Shown: piece by piece, positions 6,412-35,363 of the stretch | How positions within the stretch are numbered: the stretch's first letter is position 1 | Layout: each line of letters starts with the position of its first letter | Source of the DNA: a virus | IMG/VR virus record: IMGVR_UViG_3300044631_000551 | Span: 1 to 64,000 of that record | Reading direction: 5' to 3' (one strand) | DNA: 64,000 bases | The notes under the pieces: model-generated | The model's input: the letters and a program-made list of their open reading frames with translations, nothing else | The model's database searches: none | What the model was told of the DNA's origin: nothing | Position numbers and translations under genes: made by a program

Positions 6412-7287
6412 TTATCCGAGGATATTATCTCGAATATCCTTTATCCAGTATTTAGTAGCTTCGCCATTTTGTTTTATTCTATTATAGGTCGAAGCTGGTA
6501 GATAATCCTCGACCTGTTCGGCATAATCTAGATAGATATCAAACGGATATCCGAACGTTTCTTCTGGATACAGATCTTCATATTTCTTGATAGCTGGCAT
6601 CCAAAAGTTAATTACGATAGATTTAGAAGCCTTGATGTTATGTATTACTGTTTCTCTAGCTGAAATGGCAGTACCAATTAACACGTCGTGCTTCATATTA
6701 TAATGACGAGGTAGATTGGACTGTTGCTTGGTATTCGTTAGTTCTTGTAATAATGCACCATCAACAGCAGGAATTTCTTCAACCTTATCCATATTTACAG
6801 CAAAGACATTAGCATCAAACGCGCTATCGTTTTTAGGAAGCCCAATCATGTGGTACATGTTTAGTCGTTTGTTATCGCCATAGACACGAGGTTTGCTAAT
6901 TGCCAGTCTATGAGTTTCTAGAAGATCTATAATTTCATTTGTAAATGGATCTTTAAGAATCAATGCGCCAGCTGAGACAATAAAATGTTTTCCTTTACTA
7001 TTAAGACCAGCCAATACATCTATCGTAGAACTAACAGTATTGTTTTGATCCCAATCGTCAACTACGAACACTTCTGTTCCACAGAAATTAGTGACTAGTT
7101 TATCATAGTCTTTGAATATCTCAAACTCAGAACTTTTGTGAATGTTCTCTTCGTACATTTTATTGTACTTATCAACTTGAGATCTTGGCACCAAAACTAC
7201 TAGCTTATCGTGCGAAGAGTTCTTTAGGGCTGATTTGATTGTTAGAAACGAACCATGGTGCGTTGCTATAATAACTAAAGTTTTCAT
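6412..7287 (-). CDS. Hypothetical protein, degenerate GT8-like glycosyltransferase fold
   Basis: FDANVFAVNMDK resembles GT8 FNAGVLLINLxxW; LPRHYN and IVINF resemble GT8 C-terminal motifs; the expected DxD appears as SAG. Confidence 0.45.
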   Translation of the reverse strand: MKTLVIIATHHGSFLTIKSALKNSSHDKLVVLVPRSQVDKYNKMYEENIHKSSEFEIFKDYDKLVTNFCGTEVFVVDDWDQNNTVSSTIDVLAGLNSKGKHFIVSAGALILKDPFTNEIIDLLETHRLAISKPRVYGDNKRLNMYHMIGLPKNDSAFDANVFAVNMDKVEEIPAVDGALLQELTNTKQQSNLPRHYNMKHDVLIGTAISARETVIHNIKASKSIVINFWMPAIKKYEDLYPEETFGYPFDIYLDYAEQVEDYLPASTYNRIKQNGEATKYWIKDIRDNILG

Positions 7288-8186
7288 TCTTTGTGCTTGT
7301 ATGTTTCTTTCATGTGAGTAAAATACTTATCGATTCGTTCCTGATAGTTGTCGTGATATACACAGACAAATCCAGATTCAGGGTGCGAAAACAAAGCAGC
7401 GAGCTTATTGTAAAGTGTATCCTTGACGCCACAGCGGTCAAGAGCATTGTAAACGTGTTCGAATGTTCCACGACCTTTGCGTTCTTTTAGATCGATAAGA
7501 CCAAGTTTCTTTCCTAAGATAGTAGCTGATAATCCAGTTTCAGAACTCATACAGAAGTATGCTTTTTCGCATTTCTTTAGAAGTGGATACAGAGCCACGT
7601 CATTATTGATACACTTGTCACCCCAACGTTTCATCAGCATGGTCTGCCAAACCTTAGCAGTAATCGGATGCAGTTTAACATATGCGCCATCGGCTACGAG
7701 CTGATCAATTTTTTCCATGTCACACCATCCGCCCTCTTTAGTCAGCAGATTAGTTCCAGGAAGAATTACAAGTTCTTTTACAGGTAGATCGCTTTCTTCG
7801 TCAAGCAAATACTTGTCAGTTAGATTAGCTTTCAGTTTAGCAACAATAGCAAGACCTTCTTCGGTTGGTCCTTTTTTAATCACATTGATCAAATTCTGAA
7901 CAGAAATCGTAGAGTTACATGGCGAAATCATTACAACTTTAGTCAACAAATCTGTATACTTGTAGCCATGAATGCGATCTTTAGGTGATTCGTACGAGAT
8001 ATCGTATTCAATCTTAACACCATTTATAGTCTTAGGAATCAACTTAGAGATGTTTGCTAGTTCGTCGTTTTCATCAGAACGTAGTGCATTTCCAGTTTTC
8101 ATAAAATGTGTAACTGAGTCGCCGAGCCATTCGTTCGACGACATGTACATAAATGGTTTCTTTTTCTTTTTGACTTCTTCTACCAT
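7284..8186 (-). CDS. KpsS/KpsC-like (Capsule_synth) GT-B glycosyltransferase-like protein
   Basis: YVKLHP and LLKKCEKAYFCMSSETGLSATILGKKL resemble the KxHP and LL..ad.V.T..StvG.EAll.GKpV motifs of capsule-synthesis transferases. Confidence 0.55.
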   Translation of the reverse strand: MVEEVKKKKKPFMYMSSNEWLGDSVTHFMKTGNALRSDENDELANISKLIPKTINGVKIEYDISYESPKDRIHGYKYTDLLTKVVMISPCNSTISVQNLINVIKKGPTEEGLAIVAKLKANLTDKYLLDEESDLPVKELVILPGTNLLTKEGGWCDMEKIDQLVADGAYVKLHPITAKVWQTMLMKRWGDKCINNDVALYPLLKKCEKAYFCMSSETGLSATILGKKLGLIDLKERKGRGTFEHVYNALDRCGVKDTLYNKLAALFSHPESGFVCVYHDNYQERIDKYFTHMKETYKHKE

Positions 8187-8200
8187 AACAAAATCCTCGA

Positions 8201-8356
8201 TTATTTTTCTAAATCTTTTACTCGTTTTTTCAACGATTTAATTTCTTTCTCGATATCAATCATTTTCTGTAGAACTACTTCTACGAAAGATTCGAGTTTG
8301 CGATTTACCATATCGACGTTCACTGGAGCGCCATTTTCATCAGTTTGTATATTCAT
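8201..8356 (-). CDS. Small coiled-coil protein (51 aa, MNIQTDENGAPVNVDMVNRKLESFVEVVLQKMIDIEKEIKSLKKRVKDLEK)
   Basis: Not in ORF track; strong AAGGAG RBS; fills the gap between neighbours; AATAAATA upstream at 8378-8385. Confidence 0.75.
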   Translation of the reverse strand: MNIQTDENGAPVNVDMVNRKLESFVEVVLQKMIDIEKEIKSLKKRVKDLEK

Positions 8357-8383
8357 AATATTCTCCTTTTCATATTATATTTA

Positions 8384-11300
8384 TTACGTGCTTCTAGAAG
8401 TTTCAAAGCTGGTTGTTGTATCATATGTGGTTGTAGTAGACTTATTCGTATCGAACGTAGTCGTTTTACTTGTAGCAAAAGTCGTAGTCTTCGACGTATC
8501 AGTATTAAACACAGTGTTGGTTAAGAACACAGTGGATGTTGCAAACGTCGTTGTATATGTTGTATCAAATACGGTAGAAGTTGATTTGCTGGTTTCTTTG
8601 TTGGTATCAATCGTGGTATCACGGCTGGTACTGGTTGCAACAATAGTCGTTGTTTGGAATATAGTAGAAGTTCCAAACGTCGTAGTATATGTAGTCGTCG
8701 TATCAAACACACTAGTTGTTGATTTGCTTGTAGCAGTCAAGAAGTTAGTCGATCTACTTGTACCAATAGTTGTCGCGCGAGTAGTGTTCGTTCCAAATGC
8801 AGTTTCAGTACCAAACGTCGTAGTTGTATTTAAGCCAGTGTCAAAGATAGTATCGTAGGCTGTGGCAGTTGACTTACTGGTTGACGTAGCCTTCGAGGTA
8901 TCAGTAGATTTACTGGTTGACACGGTTGTATCAGTTGCTTTATTAGTATCAAACGTTGTATTAAACGCAGTAGTCGTACCAAAAGCAGTTGATTTAGAAG
9001 TTACAGTTGCTATATTTGTAGACTTAGTTGTATCTGTTGCTTTACTGGTTGATGCAGTCGTGTCAGTTGCTTTGTTCGTAGCAAAGAAGGTCGCATACGT
9101 CGTGGTTGTTCCAAACGTTGTAGTTTTAGAAGTATCAAACGTTGTATCAAATACGGTAGTTGTACCGAACGTTGTAGTTTTAGAAGTATCAAACGTTGTA
9201 TCAAACGTGGTAGTGGTAGCAAAAGAAGTAGTTTTGCTGGTATCAGTTGACTTGCTAGTAGAAACAGTAGTGTCCGTCGACTTGCTTGTGTTAAATGCAG
9301 TCGTGTAGGCAGTCGTTGTTCCAAACGTTGTAGTTCTAGAAGTGTCCGTTGTTTTACTTGTAGACCCAGTTGTATCAGTAGACCTGCTGGTGCTTACGGT
9401 TGTGTCGGTTGCTTTGCTTGTGTTAAAGACTGTGGTGTAAGCTGTAGTGGTATCAAACGTCGTGGTTCTGGAAGTATCAAACGTCGTATTAAACGTTGTA
9501 GTTGTACCGAACGTTGTAGTTTTACTTGTAGCAAACGTAGTATTAAACGTCGTTGTAGTAGCATACACAGTGGTCTTTGACGTATTAAACGTTGTGTTAA
9601 ATGTAGTAGTTGTAGCAAATATCGTCGTGGTTCCACGAGAAGTATCAGTAACTCGGGAAGTAGAACCAGTTGTATCAAACGTCGTATTAAACGTTGTGGT
9701 TGTGCCATACGTTGTAGTACGAGAAGTATCGGTTGCTCTAGAGGTAGAAAGCGTTGTGTCTTTTTCAGCAGTGCTGAGTGTAATTACGACACCTCTAGTT
9801 AAGTTTTTATTTCCCGCATCATTTTGTCCTATACGAACGTTGATATATCCTTGGGCAGATAAAAATGGCATTTCTTGATATTTTACTGCTGTTCTACTGT
9901 TAGTAAATTCGCCTTGTGTTACATCTACACCACCTGCAAATCCTAAAAAGTTTCTTGTTCCTGGCAACGCAGACGCGCCATAAAAACCAAAAACAATAGA
10001 TTGTGAACTGTCAACAGTTACAGCGTTATTTGCTGGTGCCGTGTCTATTGGGTTTGCGGTTGTTCCGACAAAAGAGGTAGTAACACCTGTAATTCTAACA
10101 CCTACGCCACCAGTAATCAATACTAATATTTTATCGTTTTGTGTCGCAGCGTTAATACCAGTAACTGTTGCGCCAATATCACCAGACGCCAGTACCTTAT
10201 AAGAACAGTTAAACGCAGCACGACCTGTACCAGCAGTGTTATTTGCAGTGTTTGCGATATTAGTCCAGTTTGTAGGTAAGACGTTTGTAACAGAAGTTGT
10301 TGTTGAGTTATAACCAAAGTCAAACAAGACAGCAACTTGTCCAACAGCTGCGGTGCCTGGAATTGCAATAGTTGAACCTGTAGATGTGGTACCACTATCA
10401 ACCGAAAATATTGACGTTGCAGTAAATGCTGTAATATACGTCGTATTAAATGTTGTGGTTGTAGCATACGTAGTCGTTCTGCTTGTATCAGTTGCTCTGC
10501 TTGTTGAACCAGTTGTATTAAATGTGGTACTAAATGTCGTTGTAGTACCAAATATCGTCGTTGTTCCACGAGAAGTATCAGTGGCTCGAGAAGTAGAACC
10601 AGTCGTATCGTAGGTTGTAGTCTTGCTTGTATCGGTTGCTTTACTGGTAGAACCAGTTGTATCAAATGTAGTTGTTCTGCTAGTGTCTGTTGTCTTTGAA
10701 GTAGAACCAGTCGTAGCATAAGATGTTAATCTTGAAGTTGCTGTCGCCTTAGAAGTACCTTGCGAAGTTTCAAATGTTGTTGTAGTTGCGTATGACGTAT
10801 TAAACGTGGTCGTCGTAGCAAATATTGTATTAAACGTAGTTGTTGTACCGAACGTCGTTGTACGAGAAGTATCAGTGGTTTTACTTGTACCTTGTGTGGT
10901 ATCAAAATTAGTTGTGGTCGCATACGAAGTATTGAATATCGTAGTCGTAGCAAACACTGTCGATCGGCTTGTGTCAGTAGCTTTGCTCGTGGAACCAGTT
11001 GTATTAAACATCGTTGTTCTGCTAGTGTCAGTGACTTTACTAGTAGAACCAGTTGTATTGAACGTTGTTGTTTTGCTTGTGTCGGTGGTCTTGGTCGTAT
11101 CTTGAGAAGTATCAAACACAGTAGTCGTAGCAAACGTAGTGTTAAACGTCGTTGTTGTAGCAAATGCTGTATCAAATACAGTAGTCGTAGCAAATGTAGT
11201 CGTTATAGTAGTATCGGTAGTTCTAGACGTTCCTTGCGACGTATTAAACACAGTCGTTGTTGCGTACGAAGTATTAAACGTCGTTGTCGTAGCAAATGTA

Positions 11301-11992
11301 GTCGTAGTATCGAATACAGTAGAAGTTGCTCTTGAAGTCGCAAAATTAGTAGTGACTAGAGTGTTCGTACTTCTGGTTGTCTGTGTTGTAATAACTGTAT
11401 CGGTTGTGAACGTCGTAATGTAAGTTGTTTCAAAACTAGTAACAAACGTGGTCGTAGTATCAAATACAGTAGTCGTTGACTTAGAAGTAGCAGTAACATT
11501 AGAAGTCGATGCAGTGGTATCGGTAGTTCTACTAGTATTAGTTAAGAACGCAGTATCTGTATTAAACGTTGTAACAAACGTCGTAGCGAAAACGGTATTA
11601 AACGCAGTAGTTGTTGACTTGCTTGTAGAAGCAGTAGTCAATCTATTTGTGTCGGTCAATCTTGATGTAGCAGTATCAAGATTAGTTAGTGTAGCATAAA
11701 CAGTTGTTTTGCTAGTATCAAACGTCGTGGTTTGACTTGTCTCAAATACCGTAGTTGTAGATTTAGTAGTACCAGTTGCACGCGACGTTTCAAAGACAGT
11801 AGCAACTCCAGCAGAAGCGCCATAGAAGTCAGAAAACTTAATAGTTCCAGATGTAGGAATCGCAGCATTAATCAGTGTGTTAGCCACAAACACACCACCA
11901 CGATAATACTCAGAAATTGAGTGTGGTGCTGTACCGCCAAACTCTAGGGCGATGCTTGATAAACTAATTGTGCCAGAAAACGGCAATGGCAT
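8384..11992 (-). CDS. 1202-aa Thr-rich virion protein: fibre-tip attachment N-terminus, two mirror-complementary Thr arms, central globular domain
   Basis: N-terminal SGTISLSSIALEFGG..SISEYYRGG..PTSGTIKFSDFYG motif, typical of genes following S74-chaperone fibres; TTTF/TSK repeats flank a ~220-aa beta-rich domain. Confidence 0.85.
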   Translation of the reverse strand: MPLPFSGTISLSSIALEFGGTAPHSISEYYRGGVFVANTLINAAIPTSGTIKFSDFYGASAGVATVFETSRATGTTKSTTTVFETSQTTTFDTSKTTVYATLTNLDTATSRLTDTNRLTTASTSKSTTTAFNTVFATTFVTTFNTDTAFLTNTSRTTDTTASTSNVTATSKSTTTVFDTTTTFVTSFETTYITTFTTDTVITTQTTRSTNTLVTTNFATSRATSTVFDTTTTFATTTTFNTSYATTTVFNTSQGTSRTTDTTITTTFATTTVFDTAFATTTTFNTTFATTTVFDTSQDTTKTTDTSKTTTFNTTGSTSKVTDTSRTTMFNTTGSTSKATDTSRSTVFATTTIFNTSYATTTNFDTTQGTSKTTDTSRTTTFGTTTTFNTIFATTTTFNTSYATTTTFETSQGTSKATATSRLTSYATTGSTSKTTDTSRTTTFDTTGSTSKATDTSKTTTYDTTGSTSRATDTSRGTTTIFGTTTTFSTTFNTTGSTSRATDTSRTTTYATTTTFNTTYITAFTATSIFSVDSGTTSTGSTIAIPGTAAVGQVAVLFDFGYNSTTTSVTNVLPTNWTNIANTANNTAGTGRAAFNCSYKVLASGDIGATVTGINAATQNDKILVLITGGVGVRITGVTTSFVGTTANPIDTAPANNAVTVDSSQSIVFGFYGASALPGTRNFLGFAGGVDVTQGEFTNSRTAVKYQEMPFLSAQGYINVRIGQNDAGNKNLTRGVVITLSTAEKDTTLSTSRATDTSRTTTYGTTTTFNTTFDTTGSTSRVTDTSRGTTTIFATTTTFNTTFNTSKTTVYATTTTFNTTFATSKTTTFGTTTTFNTTFDTSRTTTFDTTTAYTTVFNTSKATDTTVSTSRSTDTTGSTSKTTDTSRTTTFGTTTAYTTAFNTSKSTDTTVSTSKSTDTSKTTSFATTTTFDTTFDTSKTTTFGTTTVFDTTFDTSKTTTFGTTTTYATFFATNKATDTTASTSKATDTTKSTNIATVTSKSTAFGTTTAFNTTFDTNKATDTTVSTSKSTDTSKATSTSKSTATAYDTIFDTGLNTTTTFGTETAFGTNTTRATTIGTSRSTNFLTATSKSTTSVFDTTTTYTTTFGTSTIFQTTTIVATSTSRDTTIDTNKETSKSTSTVFDTTYTTTFATSTVFLTNTVFNTDTSKTTTFATSKTTTFDTNKSTTTTYDTTTSFETSRST

Positions 11993-11994
11993 TA

Positions 11995-13659
11995 TTAATC
12001 CTTACTGAGTTGTGCTTTCAACTCATCAATTTGAATCTGTTGTTCTTTAATTGCTTCAATTAAAAGTGGAATTAATCTCTCATATTTAACCGTCATATAT
12101 TTGTTATCAATTGGTGCAGGTGCTACGACTTCTGGCATAATAGCATTTACTTCTTGCGCAGAAACACCGACATGCATTTCTTTTTGATAGCCGAGATCTT
12201 GAGCTGTAATGTTTGGTTCGTAATAGAAACCATTTAATGATTTAACTTTTTCTATCGCGTTTGAAATGTTTGAGTATCTATCTTTTAGTCGGTCGTCTGA
12301 GAAGAATGCTGTAATGTCGCCTGTGGCTGTAATGGCAGTCTGTACAGCAAACGATGAAGTATTGCTATTGCTTACAGTAGACCATATTGCGCGCTCGGCT
12401 CCAGTTGTAGAAGCAACATAAAATACGAAGTTGTCATCAGATTGATGAACTAGCCTTGCTCCATTACCAGCAGTAGGATTATTAAAAACAATTCGTTTAT
12501 CATTAGCGATTGTCAATATATCATTAATTTTTGTATTAGATAGACTTACATTTGATGTATATGTTAATGCAGTTCCGTTGTAACCAAATGTTGATGGTGC
12601 TGTACCAAACTTAATAAACCCCAAGCTAGAGTTTTGTTGACCTTTTAGACCTACAGTATCAGCAAGGTTGACATCACCTAACCAAGCATCATCACCAATT
12701 CTATAGTTTGTTCCGTTTCCGTTGTTTGCTGCAGTGTAATAATCTGCAGATACAATACCAGATACGTTAGCAAACCCAGTGACGGTTGTATTGCCAGCGG
12801 CAAGCGTACCTGTTACGTTAGCAAAACCAGTTATAGTCGTGTTACTAAGTGTAGAACTTGTCGCTAATACTACACTTCCAGTACCAGTGACACTTGAGAA
12901 ACCAACAAACTCTGCATTCCAACCAGCTGCACCGTTACCAGCCGTAAGATCAATGGAAGTACATAATGCAACCGTGCCTGGAAGAACTGTAATTACAGTA
13001 GCAGCGTTGGCTGCTCTTACTTCAACGTTGCCGGTCGAATTGTTGACAATTAGGAATCCTTGACCTAATGTCATTGTTTGTGGAGCAGGTAACGACAATA
13101 CTTGAGTCGTCGTACCCGTAAAGAACTGCATGTAGTTACTTGATGAAGTTAGTACAGTTGTACCAGCCGCAGTTGCAGTCGTACTGTAACCGTGCTTAAT
13201 ATTGTTAAATATTGGATTAGTGGTATTTAATGTTCCTGAAATAGTAACATTTGATGTAATCGATGTATTAGTACTGGTAATATGAGTATTAGTACCAGAT
13301 AGAGTCGCGTTGCTAGTTATCGTAACCACACCACCTAAGTTAGTCGTACCTGTTACTGATAGAGCGTGAGCAGGAGTTGTGTTGCCTATACCAACGCGAT
13401 TATTAGTACCGTCAACAAATAGAACACCGCTGTCAAAGTTTGCATTACCACTAGTTTGTGTAAATGCGGTTCCGACAACCATACTTGCAAGGTTCGCGCC
13501 AATTTCAAATGTCGCTGAACCATTGGAAGACAACAGTTTCCTGTCGGTAAGGTTGATTGCTAATTCACCTGCGGCGATGTACGAGGTGTTAGATACGTTG
13601 CTTACGTTGGGTAGTAAGCCAGTGGTAGTTGTTCGTTTAATTTGAAATCTATTTGGCAT
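11995..13659 (-). CDS. Tail fibre with C-terminal peptidase S74 intramolecular chaperone
   Basis: FSDDRLKD...GVSAQEV..IMPEVV...VKYERLIPLLIEAIKEQ; N-terminal FQIKR...GELAINLTD docking-type motif. Confidence 0.88.
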   Translation of the reverse strand: MPNRFQIKRTTTTGLLPNVSNVSNTSYIAAGELAINLTDRKLLSSNGSATFEIGANLASMVVGTAFTQTSGNANFDSGVLFVDGTNNRVGIGNTTPAHALSVTGTTNLGGVVTITSNATLSGTNTHITSTNTSITSNVTISGTLNTTNPIFNNIKHGYSTTATAAGTTVLTSSSNYMQFFTGTTTQVLSLPAPQTMTLGQGFLIVNNSTGNVEVRAANAATVITVLPGTVALCTSIDLTAGNGAAGWNAEFVGFSSVTGTGSVVLATSSTLSNTTITGFANVTGTLAAGNTTVTGFANVSGIVSADYYTAANNGNGTNYRIGDDAWLGDVNLADTVGLKGQQNSSLGFIKFGTAPSTFGYNGTALTYTSNVSLSNTKINDILTIANDKRIVFNNPTAGNGARLVHQSDDNFVFYVASTTGAERAIWSTVSNSNTSSFAVQTAITATGDITAFFSDDRLKDRYSNISNAIEKVKSLNGFYYEPNITAQDLGYQKEMHVGVSAQEVNAIMPEVVAPAPIDNKYMTVKYERLIPLLIEAIKEQQIQIDELKAQLSKD

Positions 13660-17506: not shown

Positions 17507-18376
17507 TTATTGAATTTCGCTAGTATATTGTTCCGTATCGCCATCAACAATTGTCGTCACAATAGTTCCAACAATGGTATTAAATACAGTATCGGTAGAT
17601 CTAGAAGTTGATGCAGTCGTAGATTTTGATATCGATGCACCAGTAGCAAACACCGTATCATATTTAGTGGTTGTACCATAGAACGTATTAAATGACGTTG
17701 TTGTTGCGGTCGCTTTAGAAGTAGACTTAGAGGTTGATTTACTGGTATCATAAACCGAACCAAATACAGTAGTTGTTGCAAAAGAAGTATTTTTGGAAGT
17801 ATCAGTCGATCTAGAAGTATCAGTTGTTCTAGAAGTTTCATTTCCTGTTAATGTTAATTTGCTAGTTTCTCTTGTGGTTCCAACTGCTATATCACTACCT
17901 GATTCTTTATCAAAAATAAATGTAAATGTATCTGTTAGATAAGTCGTAGTGGTATTTACACCACCAGTAATATAGGTTGTAGTCGTACCATATACAGTAG
18001 TCGTCGCATATGTTGTTAATATTGTTGTATCTGTACTGCGAGCTGTACCAGTTAAAGTGCTTCTACTTACTTCTTTAGTAAGAAAAACTGGTTCGCCAGA
18101 TACTGTAGTTGTTATTGTTGTATTATATGTTGTAGTCGTTGAAACTTCATTAGAAGTTCCGAATACAGTATTATAAACAGTGTCATAAACTGTTGTAGTA
18201 TTTGTAGATTTGGATGTTAGCTGGCTTGTATCAGTTAATTTTTGCGTTTCAAAATTAGTATCATATCCAGTAACATAAAGAGTTACAAACGTAGTGTTAA
18301 ATACTGTTGATGTTGAACGCGAAGTTTGTCCTGTCGTTTGTCTAACAATATAAGAATTTAACAAAAACCCGCCCAT
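17507..18376 (-). CDS. 289-aa Thr-rich protein with nested mirror-complementary segments
   Basis: Same TTTF/TSK repeat alphabet as the 1202-aa protein; follows directly after the 575-aa fibre. Confidence 0.8.
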   Translation of the reverse strand: MGGFLLNSYIVRQTTGQTSRSTSTVFNTTFVTLYVTGYDTNFETQKLTDTSQLTSKSTNTTTVYDTVYNTVFGTSNEVSTTTTYNTTITTTVSGEPVFLTKEVSRSTLTGTARSTDTTILTTYATTTVYGTTTTYITGGVNTTTTYLTDTFTFIFDKESGSDIAVGTTRETSKLTLTGNETSRTTDTSRSTDTSKNTSFATTTVFGSVYDTSKSTSKSTSKATATTTSFNTFYGTTTKYDTVFATGASISKSTTASTSRSTDTVFNTIVGTIVTTIVDGDTEQYTSEIQ

Positions 18377-27461: not shown

Positions 27462-29183
27462 TTAGAATCTTATTACTAATTTAACTTGTTCTTTATTTGA
27501 AGTAGAACGAGAAACTTCTTGAATATTTTGAATGTATAAAACATCACCAGAATAGATAGCTAAGTTTGCAGCAGTGTTTCCACTAGAAGTGATTCGTTGC
27601 GCGCCATTAGCACCTTGTAGAACTTCACCAGACTGGAACGTACCATTGACGCCAGTTAGCAACATGACTGATGAGTTAGCAAATGCGTATCTACCAGAAG
27701 CGGTAGAAATACTACCTGTTACCACTTCACCATTTGCATAAGTTCCTGTTCCAGAACCTGTTATATTTATAGTGCATAATTGATTAAATGTGTTTGCAGC
27801 ATATAAAGTTCCGTTAGAATATGTCGGATTTTTTAACAAACCAACAGTTCTATAAGTCACGTCTGCGTTAAAAGTATTGGCTCCAACGTACTCGTCAAAC
27901 AAACAATGTACGCCAAGTGCATCACAATATAATTCGTCATAAACATCACTACCGTGTCCGCCATCTGGAGAGATAATTGCTCTCAATTCACCGCCAGAGC
28001 CAAGGTTGGTTCCAGCAGTTACAGTGACAGTAGCATCTTTATAGCCAGTACCATATTGTGCCATGTTTACGCGAGTAATTGCGCCAGTTGTTGAATTCAT
28101 TACAGCATATGCAGAAGCATTACTACCAGTTCTAGAAGTAATTGTTAACAATGGACCAATAGAATATGTACAGGTATTTGATAAGAATCCAGCTGGGAAC
28201 GAGTCAGTAATTGTAATACCATATGCTGTATTAGATGTACCAATCTTACGAACGAATGTATTTCCGCTAGTATTTGTGACAGTAATCGCACTATCTCTGT
28301 AATAGTTCGAAGTTGTATTAGCTGTGTTTGCAATAATTACTACATTGTTATTGCCAGTCGTTGTAATCGCACCAGTATGATTCGGATAATCTGCACCAGA
28401 AGCTTCAACAATAATATGAAATATTCCGCCATCTACTGCTGCGTTAGCAACGATCGCGTCTGGTGTTACAGGGATATATTCGTTTGTTGTAAACTTTAGA
28501 TTATCAGATTGAGCGACATTATACATGTACATCCACTTGTAATTGTCTGCTGTTTGAAATGGCGTTCCAATGTAGGTCGCGCTCTTTGTTGGTTTTATAG
28601 TAGAATTTGCGCCACCATTGTTTGAAATACATTTGAACACGTCACGTGTATCAGTAATAACAAAGAAGTCAGTATCTTTTAATTCAGCCTGATCGTCATA
28701 TTGAGTGTAAACTGTGCTAGTGGTCCATGTGTATTTTGGAACCATTCGTTTGAAGTTGGCTTTTTTACCAAACATCATTTCGTTCCAGATATCATAGAAG
28801 GAATCAGTTTCTGACTCTACTTCAGCTGAAACATCGCTCGTTGGATATTCAGATTGTTTACCAACAAACACATAAAAGTTATTTTCGTTTTCGAAAGAAA
28901 CGTTGACTCTTAGACCAGTACCACTCCCGCCAGTCGCGTAGATGGCAGAGTTAGGAACATTATTGTTATAAACACCTTTGGTGACTAGGGTAGCTGCTGT
29001 AACATTGGCGGTGGCATTGACAGTGACTGTAAACGTAGTTCCACCGAATAAGCTAACTGTTTCTGCGTTGACATAACTGCCACCAGCTGCGCTAATAGCG
29101 AGAGCAGAAACTTTTTGATTATCAACAGAATTGATAAACTCATCTATTGTATTTCTTTTGAATTTAGATAATAGCTTACTCAT
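27462..29183 (-). CDS. gp8: Baseplate wedge subunit
   Basis: WT..TVY.QYDD, VFKCISN, TADNYKWMYMY, ISPDGGHG, YSGDVLYIQN..EQVKLVIRF. Confidence 0.88.
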   Translation of the reverse strand: MSKLLSKFKRNTIDEFINSVDNQKVSALAISAAGGSYVNAETVSLFGGTTFTVTVNATANVTAATLVTKGVYNNNVPNSAIYATGGSGTGLRVNVSFENENNFYVFVGKQSEYPTSDVSAEVESETDSFYDIWNEMMFGKKANFKRMVPKYTWTTSTVYTQYDDQAELKDTDFFVITDTRDVFKCISNNGGANSTIKPTKSATYIGTPFQTADNYKWMYMYNVAQSDNLKFTTNEYIPVTPDAIVANAAVDGGIFHIIVEASGADYPNHTGAITTTGNNNVVIIANTANTTSNYYRDSAITVTNTSGNTFVRKIGTSNTAYGITITDSFPAGFLSNTCTYSIGPLLTITSRTGSNASAYAVMNSTTGAITRVNMAQYGTGYKDATVTVTAGTNLGSGGELRAIISPDGGHGSDVYDELYCDALGVHCLFDEYVGANTFNADVTYRTVGLLKNPTYSNGTLYAANTFNQLCTINITGSGTGTYANGEVVTGSISTASGRYAFANSSVMLLTGVNGTFQSGEVLQGANGAQRITSSGNTAANLAIYSGDVLYIQNIQEVSRSTSNKEQVKLVIRF

Positions 29184-29192
29184 TTATGTACC

Positions 29193-32100
29193 TTATGGGT
29201 TTGTGTTTAGCACTGTGTCAATGACAGTGTCAAAAACGGTATCTGTATCAACAACTGTTACATAAGCAGTGGCTGACGAAGTATTTATAGCGGTTGATGT
29301 AGACTTCTGAGTATTAAACTTAGTAGAAATCGCTGTTGTATATTGCGTAGCATTCAACACAGTTCCAGTCAAATTAAACAGCGTATCTGTATAGAACTTC
29401 GTATCAAAAGTTGTATTTTTAGTTGTTGATGTTTCTTTGTTGGTAGAAATTGTAGTATTTAAAGCTGTATCATAAGTGGTTACAATAGTTGTTAGGCTCT
29501 TAGTCTGAGTTGCGTAAGTCGTTGATTTACTGGTATCAGTATTATACGCTGTTGTTATTGTCGTATCATAAACTGACGATGTCGATTTACTTGTGGCAGT
29601 AGACTTAGTTGTATCAGTATTGAATACTGTAGAAGTAGAAGCAACAGTTGCGCTGATCTTGGTGGTATCAGTATCAAATACCGTGCTGGTAGACTTGGTC
29701 GTAGCGGTATCAATAGCAGTATCTGTATTAAATACAGTCGAAGTCGACTTCGAAGTCGCAGTCGCTATATTTGTAGCGATCTTAGTATCAGTCGACTTGC
29801 TTGTTGATGTCGAATATGCAGTAGCAGTATCGTAAATAGAAATTGTTTCATATACTGTCGAGAAAGTTGAATCAGTTTGAACAATCGTTGCTGTATTTAT
29901 GGTAGTATCAGTAGACTTCGATGTTCCTTTCGTAGTTTCGAACGTAGTTCCTTTACTTGTTGTAGTTAAGAATACTGTATCAAATAATGACTGAGTATTG
30001 TAAACTGTAACATATGATGTTAATGTATTGAATACTGTGCTGGTTAGCGCAGAAGTTGAAGTAGACTTGCTCGTTGATCCAGTTGTGCTAATGGCGGTGT
30101 CGCGCGCAGTATTTGTTTGGAACAATGTAACTGTATCGAATATAGTTGATGTTGCAAACGTTGTATTAAACGCAGTCGTAGTATCAAACACAGAAGAAGT
30201 TGATTTACTTGTTCCAGTTAGCGCAGAAGTATCAAATGTCGAAGCCGTGGCGAACACTGTATTGAATGCGGTTGTGGTATCAAACACAGTAGCATAAGTT
30301 GTTAGCGTCGCATAGATTGTAGCGAAACCAGTCGTAGTCGCGTATGCGGTAGTACGAGAAGTGGCAGTCGCTTTGTTAGTATCATATGCAGTTTCAAACG
30401 CAGTCGAAGTATCGAACACGCTAGTTGTTGCCTTAGATGTGCTAACTGTGGTATCGGTTGATTTGCTGGTTCCAGTAGACTTAGAAGTTGAAGCAGCTGT
30501 TTCTGTCGCTTTAGAAGTAGAAGTCGCTTTAGAAGTAGAAACCACAGTATCAAACGTTGTATCATACGTGGTCACATAAGTCGTAGTTGTATCAAACAAC
30601 GTCGTGGTAGATCTAGAAGTACCAATTGTGGTATCTGTTGATTTGCTGGTAGAAGTCGACTTAGAAGTCGAAGCAGATGTTCCAGTTAAATTCGAAGTAG
30701 CAGTAGACTTAGATGTAGAATTTGTAGTGTCAAACGTAGTATTATATGCAGTTACAAATGCTGTCGTTGTATTAAACACAGTCGTAGTCGACTTAGAAGT
30801 ACTCCTACCCGTTTCTATTGTAACCTCTTCTTTAGTTTCTGCATCGATAAAAGTGGTATCATATGCAGTAACATAAATCGTAGTTGTAGATTTAGAAGTA
30901 CTCGTTGCTTTAGAAGTCGTCGCACTTGTTGCTGCAGATGTATTAAACGTAGTGTTAAACGTTGTTGTCGTGTTAAACGCGGTAGTTGTATTAAACAACG
31001 TTAAGTATGCAGTTGTAGTGTTAAACACAGTCGTAGTGGCATACGCAGTATCATATAAAGTCGAAGTAGACTTAGAAGTCCCTGTCGTCTTAGAAGTTAA
31101 TTTAGACGTAGAACCTGTAGTATTAAACGTTGTATCAAACGTTGTTGTAGTATTAAACGTTGTTGTGGTGTTAAATACAGTCAAGAAAGTTGTAGTCGTA
31201 TCATATGCAGTTGTTGTTGCGTATGCTGTATTGAACGTCGTCGTCGTGCTTCTCGAAGTACTGGTAAATCTATTAGTACCAATTTGTGTTAGATACGTCG
31301 TTGTTGTATTAAACGCAGTAGAGATCGTGGTGTCAGTAGATTTTGACGTTTCTTTGGTTGTCTCTGTGGCTTTACTTGTTTGAGCACTGGTGCTTGTAGA
31401 CTTAGTGGTCGAACCAGTAGTATTAGTTTCAATTGTTGTACCATACACAGTAGTTGTATTAAACAACGTGGTCGTTGATTTTGAAGTCGCCGTTGCTTTT
31501 GAAGTGGCGCCAGTCGTATCAGTTGACTTACTTGTTGCTGTTAAAGCAGAAGTTTGTGTTGAGAAAACAGTTTGATATGCTGTATCAAACGTAGTATTAT
31601 ATGTTGTAGAAGTAAACGCACCGCTACCAGTAGTTGTTAGTTTACTTGTTGCCGTTGAAGCAGAAGTTTCTTTACTTGTAGAAGTATCGCGTTCGGTAAT
31701 CTTTGAAGTATTAGTGCTAAAGAACGTATCAAAAGCAGTATCATATTTCGTAGTGTAAGAAGTCGTCGTAGCATACGCTGTCGAGGTATCGTAAACCGAG
31801 TTAGTTAGACGCTTAGTAGAACGATTTGTGTCTGTATAAACCAACGTTGCAGTCGCAATAGTTGTGTCGGTATTAAACACAGTAGTGGTCGCAATGGCAG
31901 TATCAAATATGGTCTGAGTATTAAACACAGAAGTTGTAGATTTACTGGTAGCAGTTACATATGCTGTCGTTGTGTTAAATGTACTTGTTGTAGATTTATT
32001 AGTCGATGTAGCATATGCAGTTATAGTGTCAAAAACTGATGACGTAGATTTATTTGTTGCAGTGGCAAATGTCGTTGTTGTATCGTATGCAGTCGTGGTC

Positions 32101-35100
32101 GTTTTACCAGTACCATATGCAGTAGATTTTGACGTTTGAGTTGCAAACTTAGTATCAATCGTTGTAGAAGTATACAACGCAGTCGCTGTTAAAAAATTAG
32201 TGGCAAATGCTGAATCGGTGTACTTAGCAGTTCTATAATTTGTATCAGACAAATATTCAGTTGTAGTGTTTGTAGATTTTGAAGTACCTGTTTCCGTTGA
32301 AACTGCAGTTGAATATGCTGTACCAAGCGCAGTTTGCTTAAATGTATCTGTCGACTTAGAAGTATCTTTATTAGTTGCATAAGAAGTTGCAACTGTTGTC
32401 AATACTTCGCCAGTTGTAAAATATGTCTGAACATCTGTTGGACGCGACGTCGCAACCTTAGTAATGATATCAGTTTGTTTATTTGTCAGCGTAGTTACAT
32501 CTGTGTCTAAAGTCGTGTCTTTGAACTTGGTATTGTAAAAAGTTGCAAACTCAGTTTGGAACGAAGTATCATAAATCGTGTTGATAGTAGTCAACAGATT
32601 TGTCATAAATGTCGTGCCAGTAAACTTCTGCGTGTCGACTGTGGTATCTTTTGAAGTAGCATACGCAGTTGTAGTCGCAATCTTTGTTGCGTACGCTGTT
32701 AAGAATACAGTTGTTGTTACGCCAGCAGTTCGAGTGGCTCTGGTCGTCGCATATGCAGTTTGAACTATTGTACCAGCACCACTGTCTGTAGAGATCTTAG
32801 TATCAAACGTGGTGGTCGTATTTGTAAAGTAGCTGGTAACAGTAGCAGTTACTGGTAGAGTATCAATTGTTATGGCTGTATCTACTAACGTATTTGTGTC
32901 ATACGTTGTTGTTGTGGACACACTAGTATCAAATTTTGTAGTACGAGTTGTATCAATCGTAGTATCAGTATTGTAATTGGTAGTGGTATTAATTGTTGTA
33001 TTGACTAGAGTTCCGCCACTGGTATTAAAAATTGTATCGTATGTGGTAGAATAACTTGAGTTGATAGCTGTGCTTCTAGACGTGGCAAAAGCAGAAGTTT
33101 CTGATACTGTAACTTCTTTTGAACAAGAGTAAGACCAGACTCCAGGAGGAGCGTCATTAAGGAAAATACAATCATCAAATGTAAATCCTTTCGCAGCAGC
33201 ATCCGCTATCGCAGCATTTTGATTGACAAATCCAGTTTCACTAGCGGAAGTTGTAAATGTTGTATCTGCAGTTATACTTGTATCAAACACAGTTGTTGTG
33301 AAGAAGTTAGTTACAACAGATGTTTGGAAGTTAGTAGCAGCAACACCGCTTAGAGTACCGTAGCTGGTAGCAGTTGTTTTAGATGTGCCAGTCGCATACG
33401 CAGTAGCAAATTTAGTGCTTCTACTAGTATCATATACTGTAGCTGTACTCTTAGTCGTAGCTGTATCTCTAGCTTCTTGGCCAGCATACGTTGTGCTTGT
33501 ATAAACAATTGTTCCTACAGCAGTATTAATTGCAGTGGCAGTAGTAATTAACGTGCTAAATGCAGTTGTTGTAGAGGTCGAAATTGCTGTTTCGAATGTG
33601 GTATCGATAGCAGTTTCGCGCTTTGTCAAGAACGAAGTTCCATATGCAGATGTGGTTAGATACTCCGTCGCAATTGTAGTCGCGCCAGCAGTTTCTGTAA
33701 ATCTGCTTGTTGTAACACCAGTAGAAGTCGTAAGTGTTGTAGAAGTAGAAGTTAGATACTGAGTTTCTAGATAATCAATTAGAGCTTCTAGGGTGGTTCC
33801 ACGAGAAACAGGAACAGATTGAATTACAGTTCTACCAAATCTTTCCATACCAGCTGGATGCCACAAATCACGAAGAATGCTAGAATACTTGTTAAACGCA
33901 GTAACAGCTTGAACTTCGTATGAATATTCTTGGTAATAATAATTGTCGTGAATATACTTGTCAGAGTTTAAGAAACCGCGAGTAGATTTAAAGAATCCTT
34001 CGCCCTTACCCTGACCAAGATAATCAATTGTACCTGTTGCAACATGCGAAGCATTCGTTACACTTGTTAGCGAAACAGTCGTATTGTTAGTGTAGCCAAC
34101 ACCAGAATTATAGATGGATACAGTAGAAACAGCACCAGGACCACTACCAGAAACGCCAGCAATATTTGCATTGAAACCGAGGAATCCGCCAGCTCCATCA
34201 GACAGACGAAGCGGATAAATTAAATTATCGACGATTGCTACGTTTACGTTTGCTTGATAACCACCACCAGGATTAATATTTGTTAATGTAGCAATTGTAC
34301 CATAAGTGTAGGTGTTTAATGTAAAAATACCATTAAACGCAGTCAAATATGTTGCAGATGTATTTGATGAAAATGCAGTATAAGCTGGGGCTGCAGCATT
34401 AATTTGAATACTAAGCGCGTTAGTAATTGGCGTAGAAGTCAAGTCAATTGTGCTTGTATTGCTTAATGATCCAACATCAAAAGACGCAACGCTGGTTGGC
34501 GTTTCGCCTAGTGATGGTGTAACTGTTTCAGAAGCAGTTAATGTAAAACCTGTACCACCATTTCTAATGTCAAAAGTTACAACACCTTGTAGTCTTTGCA
34601 GACCAGTTACAATGGCTTGACCATTTACACCATCACCGCCAACAACGTTGACGAGTTCACCAAGAGAAAAACCAGGAGAGCTACCGAGAACTTGAATGCT
34701 AGAAAGTGATCCGTAAACTTTTGGACTATCTGTAACTTCGATGCCCAAGTCGTCTATTACATCTAAATTGATAATTTCTTCATCTGCCGCAAATGTTCCG
34801 ACAATGTCAGTAATATACAAAATATCGTGGCGCTGATTACCAGTTACAAATACTTTATAATCATCTACGAAAGCTGTCGCCCCAGAAATGCGACCAGTAA
34901 TCGTTTTACCGATATATGATGCAATGTTTGCATTATATTCTAGCTCCAAGTATCTTGGAACAAGCCATTGTGAATCAGATGCACGGATTACGTCTGTTCC
35001 AGGAGAATAGACGTTAATGTCTTCGTTGAATAAAACGCGGAATAATAATTCTAAACCACGTTCTGTGCCTTTAGAAGAGTATAATTCTTTGATGTGTTTT

Positions 35101-35363
35101 TGTAGAAGACGTTTATCTGCAGCAACATCAAGCGGAATACCATGCATGTATTTTTTACGAAAATAATCTACGAACTCATCAAGAGTAGTATCAATATCGC
35201 GCCAAGTTGGTAGTCGACGAGCGTCGTAGATTACTTGATTAGTTTGTTCTAACCACTCAAAATATGCTCTAACAAATGCAACGAAAGTTGGTCCTTCTTC
35301 TCGGTAGATAGAAGGAAACTGACTTTCAATGAGTGGAGAAATTAACTTCTCAAGGTCTTTCAT
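29193..35363 (-). CDS. gp7: Baseplate wedge initiator (gp7-like) with ~1500-aa Thr-rich C-terminal extension
   Basis: IESQFP..REEGP.FVAFVRAYFEWLE, LYSSKGT, HDNYYYQEYSY..HPAGM..FG; lies between gp6 and gp8. Confidence 0.82.
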   Translation of the reverse strand: MKDLEKLISPLIESQFPSIYREEGPTFVAFVRAYFEWLEQTNQVIYDARRLPTWRDIDTTLDEFVDYFRKKYMHGIPLDVAADKRLLQKHIKELYSSKGTERGLELLFRVLFNEDINVYSPGTDVIRASDSQWLVPRYLELEYNANIASYIGKTITGRISGATAFVDDYKVFVTGNQRHDILYITDIVGTFAADEEIINLDVIDDLGIEVTDSPKVYGSLSSIQVLGSSPGFSLGELVNVVGGDGVNGQAIVTGLQRLQGVVTFDIRNGGTGFTLTASETVTPSLGETPTSVASFDVGSLSNTSTIDLTSTPITNALSIQINAAAPAYTAFSSNTSATYLTAFNGIFTLNTYTYGTIATLTNINPGGGYQANVNVAIVDNLIYPLRLSDGAGGFLGFNANIAGVSGSGPGAVSTVSIYNSGVGYTNNTTVSLTSVTNASHVATGTIDYLGQGKGEGFFKSTRGFLNSDKYIHDNYYYQEYSYEVQAVTAFNKYSSILRDLWHPAGMERFGRTVIQSVPVSRGTTLEALIDYLETQYLTSTSTTLTTSTGVTTSRFTETAGATTIATEYLTTSAYGTSFLTKRETAIDTTFETAISTSTTTAFSTLITTATAINTAVGTIVYTSTTYAGQEARDTATTKSTATVYDTSRSTKFATAYATGTSKTTATSYGTLSGVAATNFQTSVVTNFFTTTVFDTSITADTTFTTSASETGFVNQNAAIADAAAKGFTFDDCIFLNDAPPGVWSYSCSKEVTVSETSAFATSRSTAINSSYSTTYDTIFNTSGGTLVNTTINTTTNYNTDTTIDTTRTTKFDTSVSTTTTYDTNTLVDTAITIDTLPVTATVTSYFTNTTTTFDTKISTDSGAGTIVQTAYATTRATRTAGVTTTVFLTAYATKIATTTAYATSKDTTVDTQKFTGTTFMTNLLTTINTIYDTSFQTEFATFYNTKFKDTTLDTDVTTLTNKQTDIITKVATSRPTDVQTYFTTGEVLTTVATSYATNKDTSKSTDTFKQTALGTAYSTAVSTETGTSKSTNTTTEYLSDTNYRTAKYTDSAFATNFLTATALYTSTTIDTKFATQTSKSTAYGTGKTTTTAYDTTTTFATATNKSTSSVFDTITAYATSTNKSTTSTFNTTTAYVTATSKSTTSVFNTQTIFDTAIATTTVFNTDTTIATATLVYTDTNRSTKRLTNSVYDTSTAYATTTSYTTKYDTAFDTFFSTNTSKITERDTSTSKETSASTATSKLTTTGSGAFTSTTYNTTFDTAYQTVFSTQTSALTATSKSTDTTGATSKATATSKSTTTLFNTTTVYGTTIETNTTGSTTKSTSTSAQTSKATETTKETSKSTDTTISTAFNTTTTYLTQIGTNRFTSTSRSTTTTFNTAYATTTAYDTTTTFLTVFNTTTTFNTTTTFDTTFNTTGSTSKLTSKTTGTSKSTSTLYDTAYATTTVFNTTTAYLTLFNTTTAFNTTTTFNTTFNTSAATSATTSKATSTSKSTTTIYVTAYDTTFIDAETKEEVTIETGRSTSKSTTTVFNTTTAFVTAYNTTFDTTNSTSKSTATSNLTGTSASTSKSTSTSKSTDTTIGTSRSTTTLFDTTTTYVTTYDTTFDTVVSTSKATSTSKATETAASTSKSTGTSKSTDTTVSTSKATTSVFDTSTAFETAYDTNKATATSRTTAYATTTGFATIYATLTTYATVFDTTTAFNTVFATASTFDTSALTGTSKSTSSVFDTTTAFNTTFATSTIFDTVTLFQTNTARDTAISTTGSTSKSTSTSALTSTVFNTLTSYVTVYNTQSLFDTVFLTTTSKGTTFETTKGTSKSTDTTINTATIVQTDSTFSTVYETISIYDTATAYSTSTSKSTDTKIATNIATATSKSTSTVFNTDTAIDTATTKSTSTVFDTDTTKISATVASTSTVFNTDTTKSTATSKSTSSVYDTTITTAYNTDTSKSTTYATQTKSLTTIVTTYDTALNTTISTNKETSTTKNTTFDTKFYTDTLFNLTGTVLNATQYTTAISTKFNTQKSTSTAINTSSATAYVTVVDTDTVFDTVIDTVLNTNP

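Follow-up and report, generated by a model that had tools for sequence, protein, structure and literature searches.

The needle of bacteriophage T4 gp37 is a described case in which a phage protein folds back on itself. The gp37 chain runs out to a receptor-binding tip in mid-sequence and returns antiparallel, with its N- and C-terminal parts side by side in the shaft; its arms are tens of residues long, the needle is six-stranded, and its irons sit on His-x-His motifs. The structure is reportedly the one deposited as PDB 2XGF by Bartual et al. in 2010. The needle has been described as a trimer with seven irons along its length (PMC6957217). The present analysis concerns a gene for a Thr-rich protein of 1202 residues, located in a stretch of viral DNA of 64,000 nucleotides (positions 1 to 64,000 of the IMG/VR record IMGVR_UViG_3300044631_000551; hereafter, the window). 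The two long arms of this protein are register-exact mirror complements of each other, and they probably form a single-chain, fold-back stalk, an antiparallel beta-ribbon of about 150 nm that displays a tip domain encoded in mid-sequence.

The pair chemistry of such a ribbon has counterparts in small model systems. In short beta-hairpins, both designed and natural, aromatic residues pair across the strands with Lys or Arg (cation–pi pairs) or with Gly, and Thr is a beta-former of high propensity that tolerates solvent exposure; OspA and SasG are single-layer beta-sheets. A full-text search of the literature found no description of a mirror-coded fold-back ribbon, a 16-class atlas of tail fibers does not mention hairpins, and the fold-back fiber design was not found in any paper or solved structure searched. 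Within that literature, the statement of the original prediction, a reading of this DNA made from its letters and translations, that no phage appendage of such a build has been described holds, with the T4 gp37 needle as a partial topological precedent.

Results

The Two Arms Are Complementary in a Single Mirror Register

The listing of open reading frames, the translation, and the analyses described below divide the gene as follows:

8384 to 11992, minus strand: whole gene of the Thr-rich, putative fold-back fiber protein, 1202 residues
11801 to 11992, minus strand: N-terminal module, residues 1–64, a probable docking or adaptor domain and the part conserved in deposited phages
10415 to 11800, minus strand: N arm, residues 65–526, predicted outgoing strand of the beta-ribbon, pairing with residues 741–1202 at i + j = 1267; 96 rungs, at odd positions
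9773 to 10414, minus strand: tip domain, residues 527–740 (214 residues), a two-lobed all-beta sandwich according to AlphaFold2 and a probable binding module
8387 to 9772, minus strand: C arm, residues 741–1202, predicted returning strand; 95 of 95 gaps equal to those of the reversed N arm, rungs at even positions

The stop codon occupies 8384–8386. In the translation, Thr accounts for 449 of 1202 residues (37%), and in the arms for 45%.

Every sum c = i + j of paired residue numbers was scored for aromatic/cation pairs. At c = 1267, there are 63–65 aromatic/cation pairs, no cation/cation pair, and 2–3 aromatic/aromatic pairs, whereas the runner-up sums reach 25–28 aromatic/cation pairs. Each Lys or Arg of the arms (64 of 64) lies opposite a Phe or Tyr. 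After full shuffling of the C arm, the best score over all sums averaged 12.9 pairs with a maximum of 20; when identities were shuffled among the key positions and the spacing was kept, 32.8 ± 3.9 pairs were obtained (maximum 45), compared with the 64 observed. Mutual information has a median of 0.27 bit per pair and rises to 0.86 at c = 1267. A parallel register was rejected, its best alignment giving 26 pairs only, as were other antiparallel registers, the next best of which have 25–28. Secondary sub-stems at c = 1267 ± 114 arise from the 114-residue duplications described below. A register at c ± 6, considered as a sign of interchain contacts in a trimer, is uninterpretable because rungs of the same type recur at lag 6 along each strand.

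The spacing of the key residues is mirrored as well. These residues keep to a single parity, odd in the N arm (78 of 78) and even in the C arm (83 of 84). With rungs defined as the non-Thr/Ser positions on that parity, there are 96 in each arm, all 96 of which coincide and none of which is left unpaired. The string of gaps between them is an aperiodic succession of 4s and 6s, and the reversed N arm matches the C arm at 95 of 95 gaps, for which the probability by chance is about 3e-29. The stem runs unbroken, with zero indel, from 65/1202 to 526/741; each arm thus comprises 462 residues, and the C-terminal residue 1202 lies opposite residue 65. A chance origin of the mirror register is excluded.

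The original prediction had been drawn up by hand alignment and called for one sharp peak near 1267 that is lost on shuffling, a stem with F67/R1200 as its outermost and F523/K744 as its innermost pair, a list of pairs read outward from the center, a mirrored irregular 4/6 spacing, and a single register with no net indel. All of this is reproduced by the computed pairs at c = 1267: the four named residues are correct in the translation, the list of pairs recurs as given, and no other sum comes close. The two mirror-complementary Thr arms likewise stand, but their length, put at about 457 residues, is corrected to 462 each.

Nearly Every Rung Contains Exactly One Aromatic Residue

The face of the stem that carries the rungs comprises 231 residue pairs, 134 of them Thr-Thr and 64 combining an aromatic residue with Lys or Arg. 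The remaining pairs are Phe-Gly (8), Phe-Gln (5), aromatic–aliphatic (about 15), and Phe-Phe (2), and in none of the 231 does an aromatic residue face Thr. Exactly one aromatic residue is present in 92 of the 96 rungs; its partner is Lys or Arg in two thirds of them and Gly, Gln, or an aliphatic residue in the others (about 30 rungs). The earlier formulation, in which each aromatic faces Lys, Arg, Gly, Gln, or a small aliphatic residue, describes these pairs correctly, but the rule is better put as one aromatic per rung.

On the opposite face, Thr, Ser, Ala, Asp, Asn, Val, and Gly are found, together with a few Ile, Leu, Glu, Gln, and Met and one Phe. This face has a second complementarity, in which the residue that follows the aromatic (Asn, Asp, Ala, or Gly) is placed opposite the Ser located just before the cation (N-S, 15 pairs; D-S, 12; A-S, 10; G-S, 7). 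Pro, Cys, His, and Trp are absent from all 924 arm residues, and the arms are close to neutral, with 64 Lys/Arg and 60 Asp/Glu. A single parity maintained over 462 residues per arm is as expected of an unbroken strand, and its constancy would place all rungs on one face, at the same type of pair site in a two-stranded sheet.

Matched Duplications in the Two Arms

A DNA palindrome was considered as the cause of the mirror order and rejected. In mirror register the DNA identity is 0.32, and the sole inverted repeat in the gene is one 19-nucleotide pair with 79% identity; moreover, Thr codons (ACN) yield NGT on reverse complementation, which does not encode Thr. Tandem duplication gives direct rather than mirror order, so that the mirror can be maintained only by selection on the protein. 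Direct repeats are nevertheless present, and the strongest in both arms has a lag of 114:

10625 to 11302, minus strand: N-arm tandem duplication, residues 231–342 and 345–456, lag 114; amino acid identity 0.75, nucleotide identity 0.70
8882 to 9583, minus strand: C-arm tandem duplication, residues 804–923 and 918–1037, lag 114; amino acid identity 0.74, nucleotide identity 0.70

The mirror image of the N-arm duplication is residues 811–1036, where the C-arm duplication lies. Identity between copies at the third position of Thr codons is 0.38 in the N arm and 0.38 in the C arm, against a background of 0.28. The two 114-residue duplications are therefore of equal divergence and occupy mirrored positions.

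Orthologs Change Length within the Rule

Orthologs of the 1202-residue protein are found in IMG/VR on L001, L002, L004, and L005. In L001, whose arms are about 775 residues long, a single cross-register accounts for 155 rungs and for 106 aromatic/cation pairs, compared with 52 in the next best; because a frame shift within the tip domain divides the gene, its two pieces were analyzed separately. The outer 36 rungs are colinear with those of the 1202-residue protein and identical in spacing, and the substitutions among them keep to the rule (FR to YK, RF to KF, AF to RF, NY to KY, IF to KF, and FF to LF). The L005 protein (1115 residues) has the layout of a three-way junction, in which the stem boundaries abut and the extra segment of the N arm is complementary to itself:

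Residues 64–196 and 983–1115, c = 1179: outer stem
Residues about 195–372 and 379–556, c = 751: self-complementary side hairpin, 22 pairs
Residues 550–640 and 881–971, c = 1521: inner stem, which bears the tip domain

In L002, a different globular domain of about 240 residues is inserted in one arm and the tip is about 25 residues long; 45 pairs lie in one register. Together, the matched duplications and the orthologs, whose arms vary in length yet stay in register, require selection on pairing. Paired length changes and rule-keeping swaps among homologs, which had been named as a way to check the hairpin, are thus present in the matched 114-residue duplication, in L001, in L005, and in the three orientation swaps described in the next section.

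Frame shifts were noted at L001:4308-4368 (inside the tip domain) and in L002 around 2005–2330 (at the small tip), and the NCBI-derived fragment P0018 also loses its reading frame within the C arm. Either misassembly of repetitive DNA or genuine frame shifts could account for these cases.

The Same Code in gp7-like and Other Proteins

A mirror code is also found in 16 of 17 gp7-like relatives, including that of Stenotrophomonas phage DLP_6, each with its own single value of c. Their hairpins contain 23–41 aromatic/cation pairs each and no cation/cation pair; in P0004, for example, there are 41 pairs against 19. Summed over the 16 proteins, 480 aromatic/cation and 0 cation/cation pairs are counted at shift 0, as opposed to 20–227 when the register is shifted by ±2 to 8. 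Among the stems listed, the largest contiguous ones have arms of about 175–260 residues, the tip comprises about 20–65 residues, and the cation is almost exclusively Arg. At three homologous rungs, the orientation is swapped between FR and RF among these relatives. When the 1202-residue protein was compared with the 17 gp7-like proteins by HMMER, E values of 4e-13 to 7e-4 were obtained at 32–39% identity over 13–39% of the query; low-complexity composition inflates such scores for the arm repeats, and arm similarity is weak on its own.

One gp7-like protein, of 2056 residues, is encoded in the window itself (29193 to 35363, minus strand). Its hairpin, at about 30036–31631, comprises 30 aromatic/cation pairs at c = 3021, in arms of 261 residues joined by a loop of 10; weaker stems with c = 3037 and 3063 lie outside it. 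The Baseplate_wedge domain (PF23786) is present in this protein and in DLP_6 gp7 and absent from the 1202-residue protein. Each baseplate wedge of T4 contains one copy of gp7, which, together with the occurrence of the code in gp7-like proteins, favors a ribbon whose stability does not depend on further chains. A sequence search of the PDB with DLP_6 gp7 found nothing, and in the DLP6 paper it is listed simply as "gp7: baseplate wedge initiator". The C-terminal extensions of these proteins are not known to have been described as hairpins.

A Thr-rich protein of 289 residues (17507 to 18376, minus strand) obeys the same code in two nested stems, an outer one at c = 285 (residues 14–76 and 209–271, 8 pairs) and an inner one at c = 318 (residues 113–143 and 175–205). 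In L007, arms of 398 residues are connected by a 6-residue loop. Loops of 6–10 residues allow intrachain turns only.

A protein of 2012 residues with a different N-terminus (L014:5950-12069) has two hairpins. The first has 456-residue arms (c = 1221, 45 pairs) that enclose a 218-residue loop unrelated to the tip domain of the 1202-residue protein; the second (c = 2775) has 150-residue arms and a loop of 8. Because both anchor and tip differ, the stalk is reused with other anchors and tips.

The Tip Domain Is Modular

With an alignment of 121 sequences, AlphaFold2 predicts the tip domain as an all-beta, two-lobed sandwich at a predicted local distance difference test score (pLDDT) above 90. The first and last predicted strands (residues 529–537 and 730–743) are mirror-related under c = 1267. 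A phmmer search returned 366 homologs at E ≤ 1e-3, 23 of them at E ≤ 1e-10, most of which are free-standing proteins of about 210 residues or form the C-terminal part of proteins in which Gly_rich_2 or Laminin_G_3 modules come first; no Pfam model exists for the domain. The columns conserved at 90% or more in the alignment (A1) are P79, G85, D86, L90, P107, G146, and K155. Matches at the level of fold are weak. In a wide VIA search, all were below Z 6, the best being to the APC-beta domain of TgPLP1 (Z 5.8), with bicupin-like and TNF/C1q-like folds among the matches; the receptor-binding protein head of lactococcal phage Tuc2009 gives a weak match as well (Z 5.0 over 98 residues), and Foldseek found nothing in the PDB at E ≤ 1e-3.

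The genomic context of free-standing homologs was taken from two short metagenome contigs. At L037:1021-2675, a fiber-like gene is followed, with an overlap of 4 nucleotides, by a gene for a 269-residue protein in which a 9-residue start of the MxLPxSGTI type is joined directly to the tip domain (domain BLASTP E 1e-9). This arrangement makes the protein an armless counterpart of the 1202-residue protein. Its modular distribution and the weak fold matches make the tip domain most likely a modular ligand- or receptor-binding end. The central domain had been proposed as a distal receptor binder; it is a modular beta-sandwich predicted to sit at the turn, and a binding role at the distal end is what the same two lines of evidence suggest.

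The N-Terminal Module and Neighboring Genes

The virus is a myovirus of the T4 superfamily, and the gene is part of its structural module, with several further fiber genes nearby:

6412 to 8186, minus strand: two downstream genes of 300 and 291 residues, conserved next to the Thr-rich protein
11995 to 13659, minus strand: upstream tail fiber of 554 residues with a C-terminal Peptidase_S74 intramolecular chaperone (Pfam PF13884, E 8.5e-8)
27462 to 29183: gp8, in the same structural module
29193 to 35363, minus strand: gp7-like gene, 2056 residues, PF23786
35363 to 37156: gp6, in the same structural module

The N-terminal part of about 60 residues is the only portion of the protein that tblastn finds in deposited phages, at 47–57% identity, in phages of Xanthomonas, Ralstonia, Rhizobium, Vibrio, and Pseudomonas, where all copies are annotated as hypothetical. 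The S74 fiber gene, which also matches long-tail-fiber families of PHROG, ends 2 nucleotides before the start codon of the 1202-residue gene; according to Pfam, the 1202-residue protein has no S74 domain of its own, the domain being encoded in the upstream gene. At about 20 of the loci examined, the gene with the N-terminal module begins, to within a few bases, where a gene terminating in the S74 chaperone ends. Ralstonia phage YL1 is one example, and in Xanthomonas RTH11 the gene with the module follows a 2203-residue gene annotated as a tail-fiber domain protein. Conservation of this gene pair supports a functional link, whereas the site and manner of binding are not shown by gene order. On the evidence of the conserved adjacency, the N-terminal module probably docks on the S74 fiber; it is this adjacency that speaks for the anchoring originally ascribed to an N-terminal motif.

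The two downstream genes are 77–94% identical in L001, L002, L003, L005, and L008, while the Thr arms diverge. Neither gene matches a family in Pfam or NCBIfam, and an assignment as glycosyltransferases has no support in either database.

The source record, an IMG/VR viral contig of 84,438 bases, is about 51% complete. By gp6, the closest cultured phages are Stenotrophomonas phage DLP_6 (46.6% amino acid identity), Caulobacter phage Cr30, Sinorhizobium phages phiM12 and phiN3, and Pelagibacter phage HTVC008M. The locus has no match among deposited phages by megablast. The 1202-residue protein matches no Pfam family and, by phmmer, no PDB chain at E ≤ 1; its sole PHROG match is weak and falls in the N-terminal module (phrog_30374, a family of unknown function), and the ESM Atlas returns unnamed viral clusters only, with scores of at most 0.80. 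Searches with protein P0024 against phages and with protein P0020 in viral contigs found nothing. Many long Val-rich or Leu/Gln-rich open reading frames overlap the gene between 8298 and 11920, on the plus strand (for example, 8298–8858) and in the other frames of the minus strand. These frames result from the abundance of ACN codons for Thr and should not be annotated as genes.

Discussion

A Proposed Fold-Back Ribbon Zipped by Aromatic–Cation Pairs

The register, parity, and code are observed directly, as are their conservation and co-variation among relatives. In the structure that we propose on this basis, residues 1–64 would form a small module that binds the trimeric S74 fiber encoded immediately upstream. 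Residues 65–526 would run outward as one continuous beta-strand and residues 741–1202 would return antiparallel, which would place residue i beside residue 1267 − i in a two-stranded ribbon 462 residue pairs long; with a rise of 0.33 nm per residue, it would measure about 150 nm if straight. On the coded face, Thr-Thr spacer pairs would be broken every 4 or 6 residues by a rung with one aromatic. As is known from the chemistry of hairpins, its ring would sit between Thr methyls, covered by the aliphatic portion and the charge of the Lys or Arg on the other strand, or would fill the space over Gly. Aperiodic 4/6 spacing and the choice of strand for the aromatic would constitute a barcode of roughly two bits per rung that allows one register. 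Strands that slipped, or that paired in parallel and in register as in amyloid, would be penalized by such a barcode, since Lys would then come to lie over Lys or Phe over Phe. The tip domain would be held far from the virion, widening the capture radius, and the host range could change by tip swap or domain insertion (compare L002 and L014). The single-chain antiparallel hairpin zipped by aromatic–cation pairs, as first proposed, is thus supported by the register statistics and the comparative evidence, from which we infer its beta conformation.

On balance, and with some reserve, we also favor a more general interpretation, in which the aperiodic 4/6 rungs are a base-pairing-like protein code, a barcode that specifies a unique antiparallel partner. 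Such a code would permit RNA-like stems, loops, inserted domains, and three-way junctions, and would provide phages with an extensible, recombinable stalk system for binding domains that evolves by compensatory duplication or by insertion of self-complementary branches.

Several points weigh against the proposed ribbon. When supplied with an alignment, AlphaFold2 predicts no strands in the arms (pLDDT about 45–54; alignment depth in the arms about 3 sequences), and from the single sequence of residues 380–887 it reaches a pLDDT of 34.5; there is no confident AlphaFold2 model of the arms and no structural confirmation. A free two-stranded ribbon of 150 nm has no precedent among solved structures, and its stability is unproven. 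Sequence alone cannot separate a lone ribbon from a bundle of ribbons. The docking partner is named from gene order alone, and the N-terminal likeness to the armless relative of L037 consists of a 9-residue motif that is not significant by BLAST. For the tip domain, the fold matches are weak (Z below 6) and the binding role is unproven. Orientation swaps among the gp7-like relatives are few, at 3 of 41 key column pairs, and the contigs of two orthologs contain frame shifts near the tip that may be assembly errors.

Alternative Arrangements of the Arms

Three fold-back chains might instead be bundled into a six-stranded, intertwined needle, resembling an elongated, metal-free T4 gp37 tip with the small-residue face in its core and the rungs outside. 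S74 fibers are trimers, as is the gp37 needle, in which each of three chains folds back around a tip encoded in mid-sequence; the presumed docking partner of the 1202-residue protein is an S74 fiber, a ribbon face made of small residues only could pack a narrow core, and a thicker rod is mechanically more plausible over 150 nm. Set against these considerations are the same code in gp7-like baseplate proteins, for which T4 gp7 provides a single copy per wedge, and the L005 three-way junction and the nested stems of the 289-residue protein, both awkward in a threefold bundle. Nor are there His-x-His metal sites, the whole protein having 1 His and the arms 0, and counter-ions would be required for the roughly 52 Asp of the face that would form the core. 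A bundle is therefore unlikely in our view, though it deserves serious consideration. The register statistics fit pairing between chains as well as pairing within one, so the N arm could in principle be matched with the C arm of another molecule in head-to-tail dimers or polymers. Relatives with 6–10-residue loops between long arms can pair only within the chain, however, the extra segment of L005 is self-complementary with boundaries that abut as in a single-chain junction, and residue 65 meets residue 1202, as would suit a closed stem on one N-terminal module. We consider intermolecular pairing highly improbable.

It is harder still to credit a reading of the arms as independent beta-solenoids or as flexible, mucin-like spacers that may be O-glycosylated, in which the mirror order would involve no physical pairing and would be a by-product of repeat evolution. 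A Thr content of 45%, arms that are unstructured in AlphaFold2, and the adjoining pair of conserved genes of no known function would fit a glycosylated spacer, yet Pfam and NCBIfam give no glycosyltransferase support for those genes, and Pro, which is common in Thr/Ser-rich linkers, does not occur once in 924 arm residues. The strict two-residue parity is that of an extended strand, and a solenoid would relate residue i to i plus a period rather than hold i + j constant. Identity of the mirrored gap strings has a probability of about 3e-29 by chance, mirror order is beyond the reach of tandem duplication, and the matched duplications and in-register variation in arm length need selection on pairing.

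Implications

If correct, the single-chain fold-back ribbon would represent a new class of protein architecture, a continuous two-stranded beta-ribbon of up to 150–250 nm made from one chain, whose register is written in a simple, readable side-chain code with RNA-like rules of stems, loops, and junctions. Phage "dark matter" of this kind, for which AlphaFold2 and the profile libraries tried gave nothing, could become readable by a simple mirror scan; it includes those halves of gp7-like proteins that are annotated in DLP_6 and other cultured phages but have lacked an explanation. The ribbon would offer a natural model of how long beta-structures escape mis-registration and amyloid formation, through a one-aromatic rule that admits neither Lys-Lys nor Phe-Phe pairs. 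For phage biology, it would point to long-reach host-capture appendages with swappable tip domains, and for protein design, to a programmable, length-tunable spacer that is rigid or semi-rigid.

Comparison with Known Systems

The T4 gp37 needle shares with the proposed structure the fold-back of the chain with a tip in mid-sequence, which is deduced here at the level of sequence from 462 pairs and a 214-residue domain at the turn, as well as a position in the distal part of a phage host-recognition fiber. In contrast, the needle is an obligate trimer stapled by His and iron, whereas the 1202-residue protein has its sole His at position 24 and none in the arms. No sequence or profile relation between the two was detected by Pfam or by phmmer against the PDB. 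The arms are 462 residues long here and about 775 in L001, compared with tens in gp37, and the register comes from a code of one aromatic per rung with aperiodic 4/6 spacing. Relatives of the 1202-residue protein also branch and nest, and the ribbon occurs on gp7-like baseplate proteins as well.

The C-terminal extensions of gp7-like proteins of the DLP_6 type use the same repeat alphabet of Thr, aromatic residues, and Arg, with a single mirror register each, but they are carried by a baseplate core protein rather than an N-terminal module associated with an S74 fiber, and they end in a short tip instead of a 214-residue domain. Adhesins of the T2/S16 gp38 type, and other small proteins whose genes directly follow a tail-fiber gene, resemble the 1202-residue protein in this gene order and in having an N-terminal attachment part followed by a distal specificity part. 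However, no sequence or fold relation to them was found, and gp38 is a compact polyglycine-II sandwich without a long stalk.

With short beta-hairpins, OspA, and SasG, the arms would have in common the pairing of aromatic residues with Lys/Arg or Gly across antiparallel strands. Those systems have about 10–20 residues per strand or three-stranded repeats, without branches or a long register-coded ribbon. Stalks of the colicin Ia type, finally, are built from one chain as two antiparallel strands with a receptor-binding domain at the turn, as proposed here, but they are alpha-helical coiled coils of about 16 nm, whereas the beta-ribbon of the 1202-residue protein would be about ten times longer.

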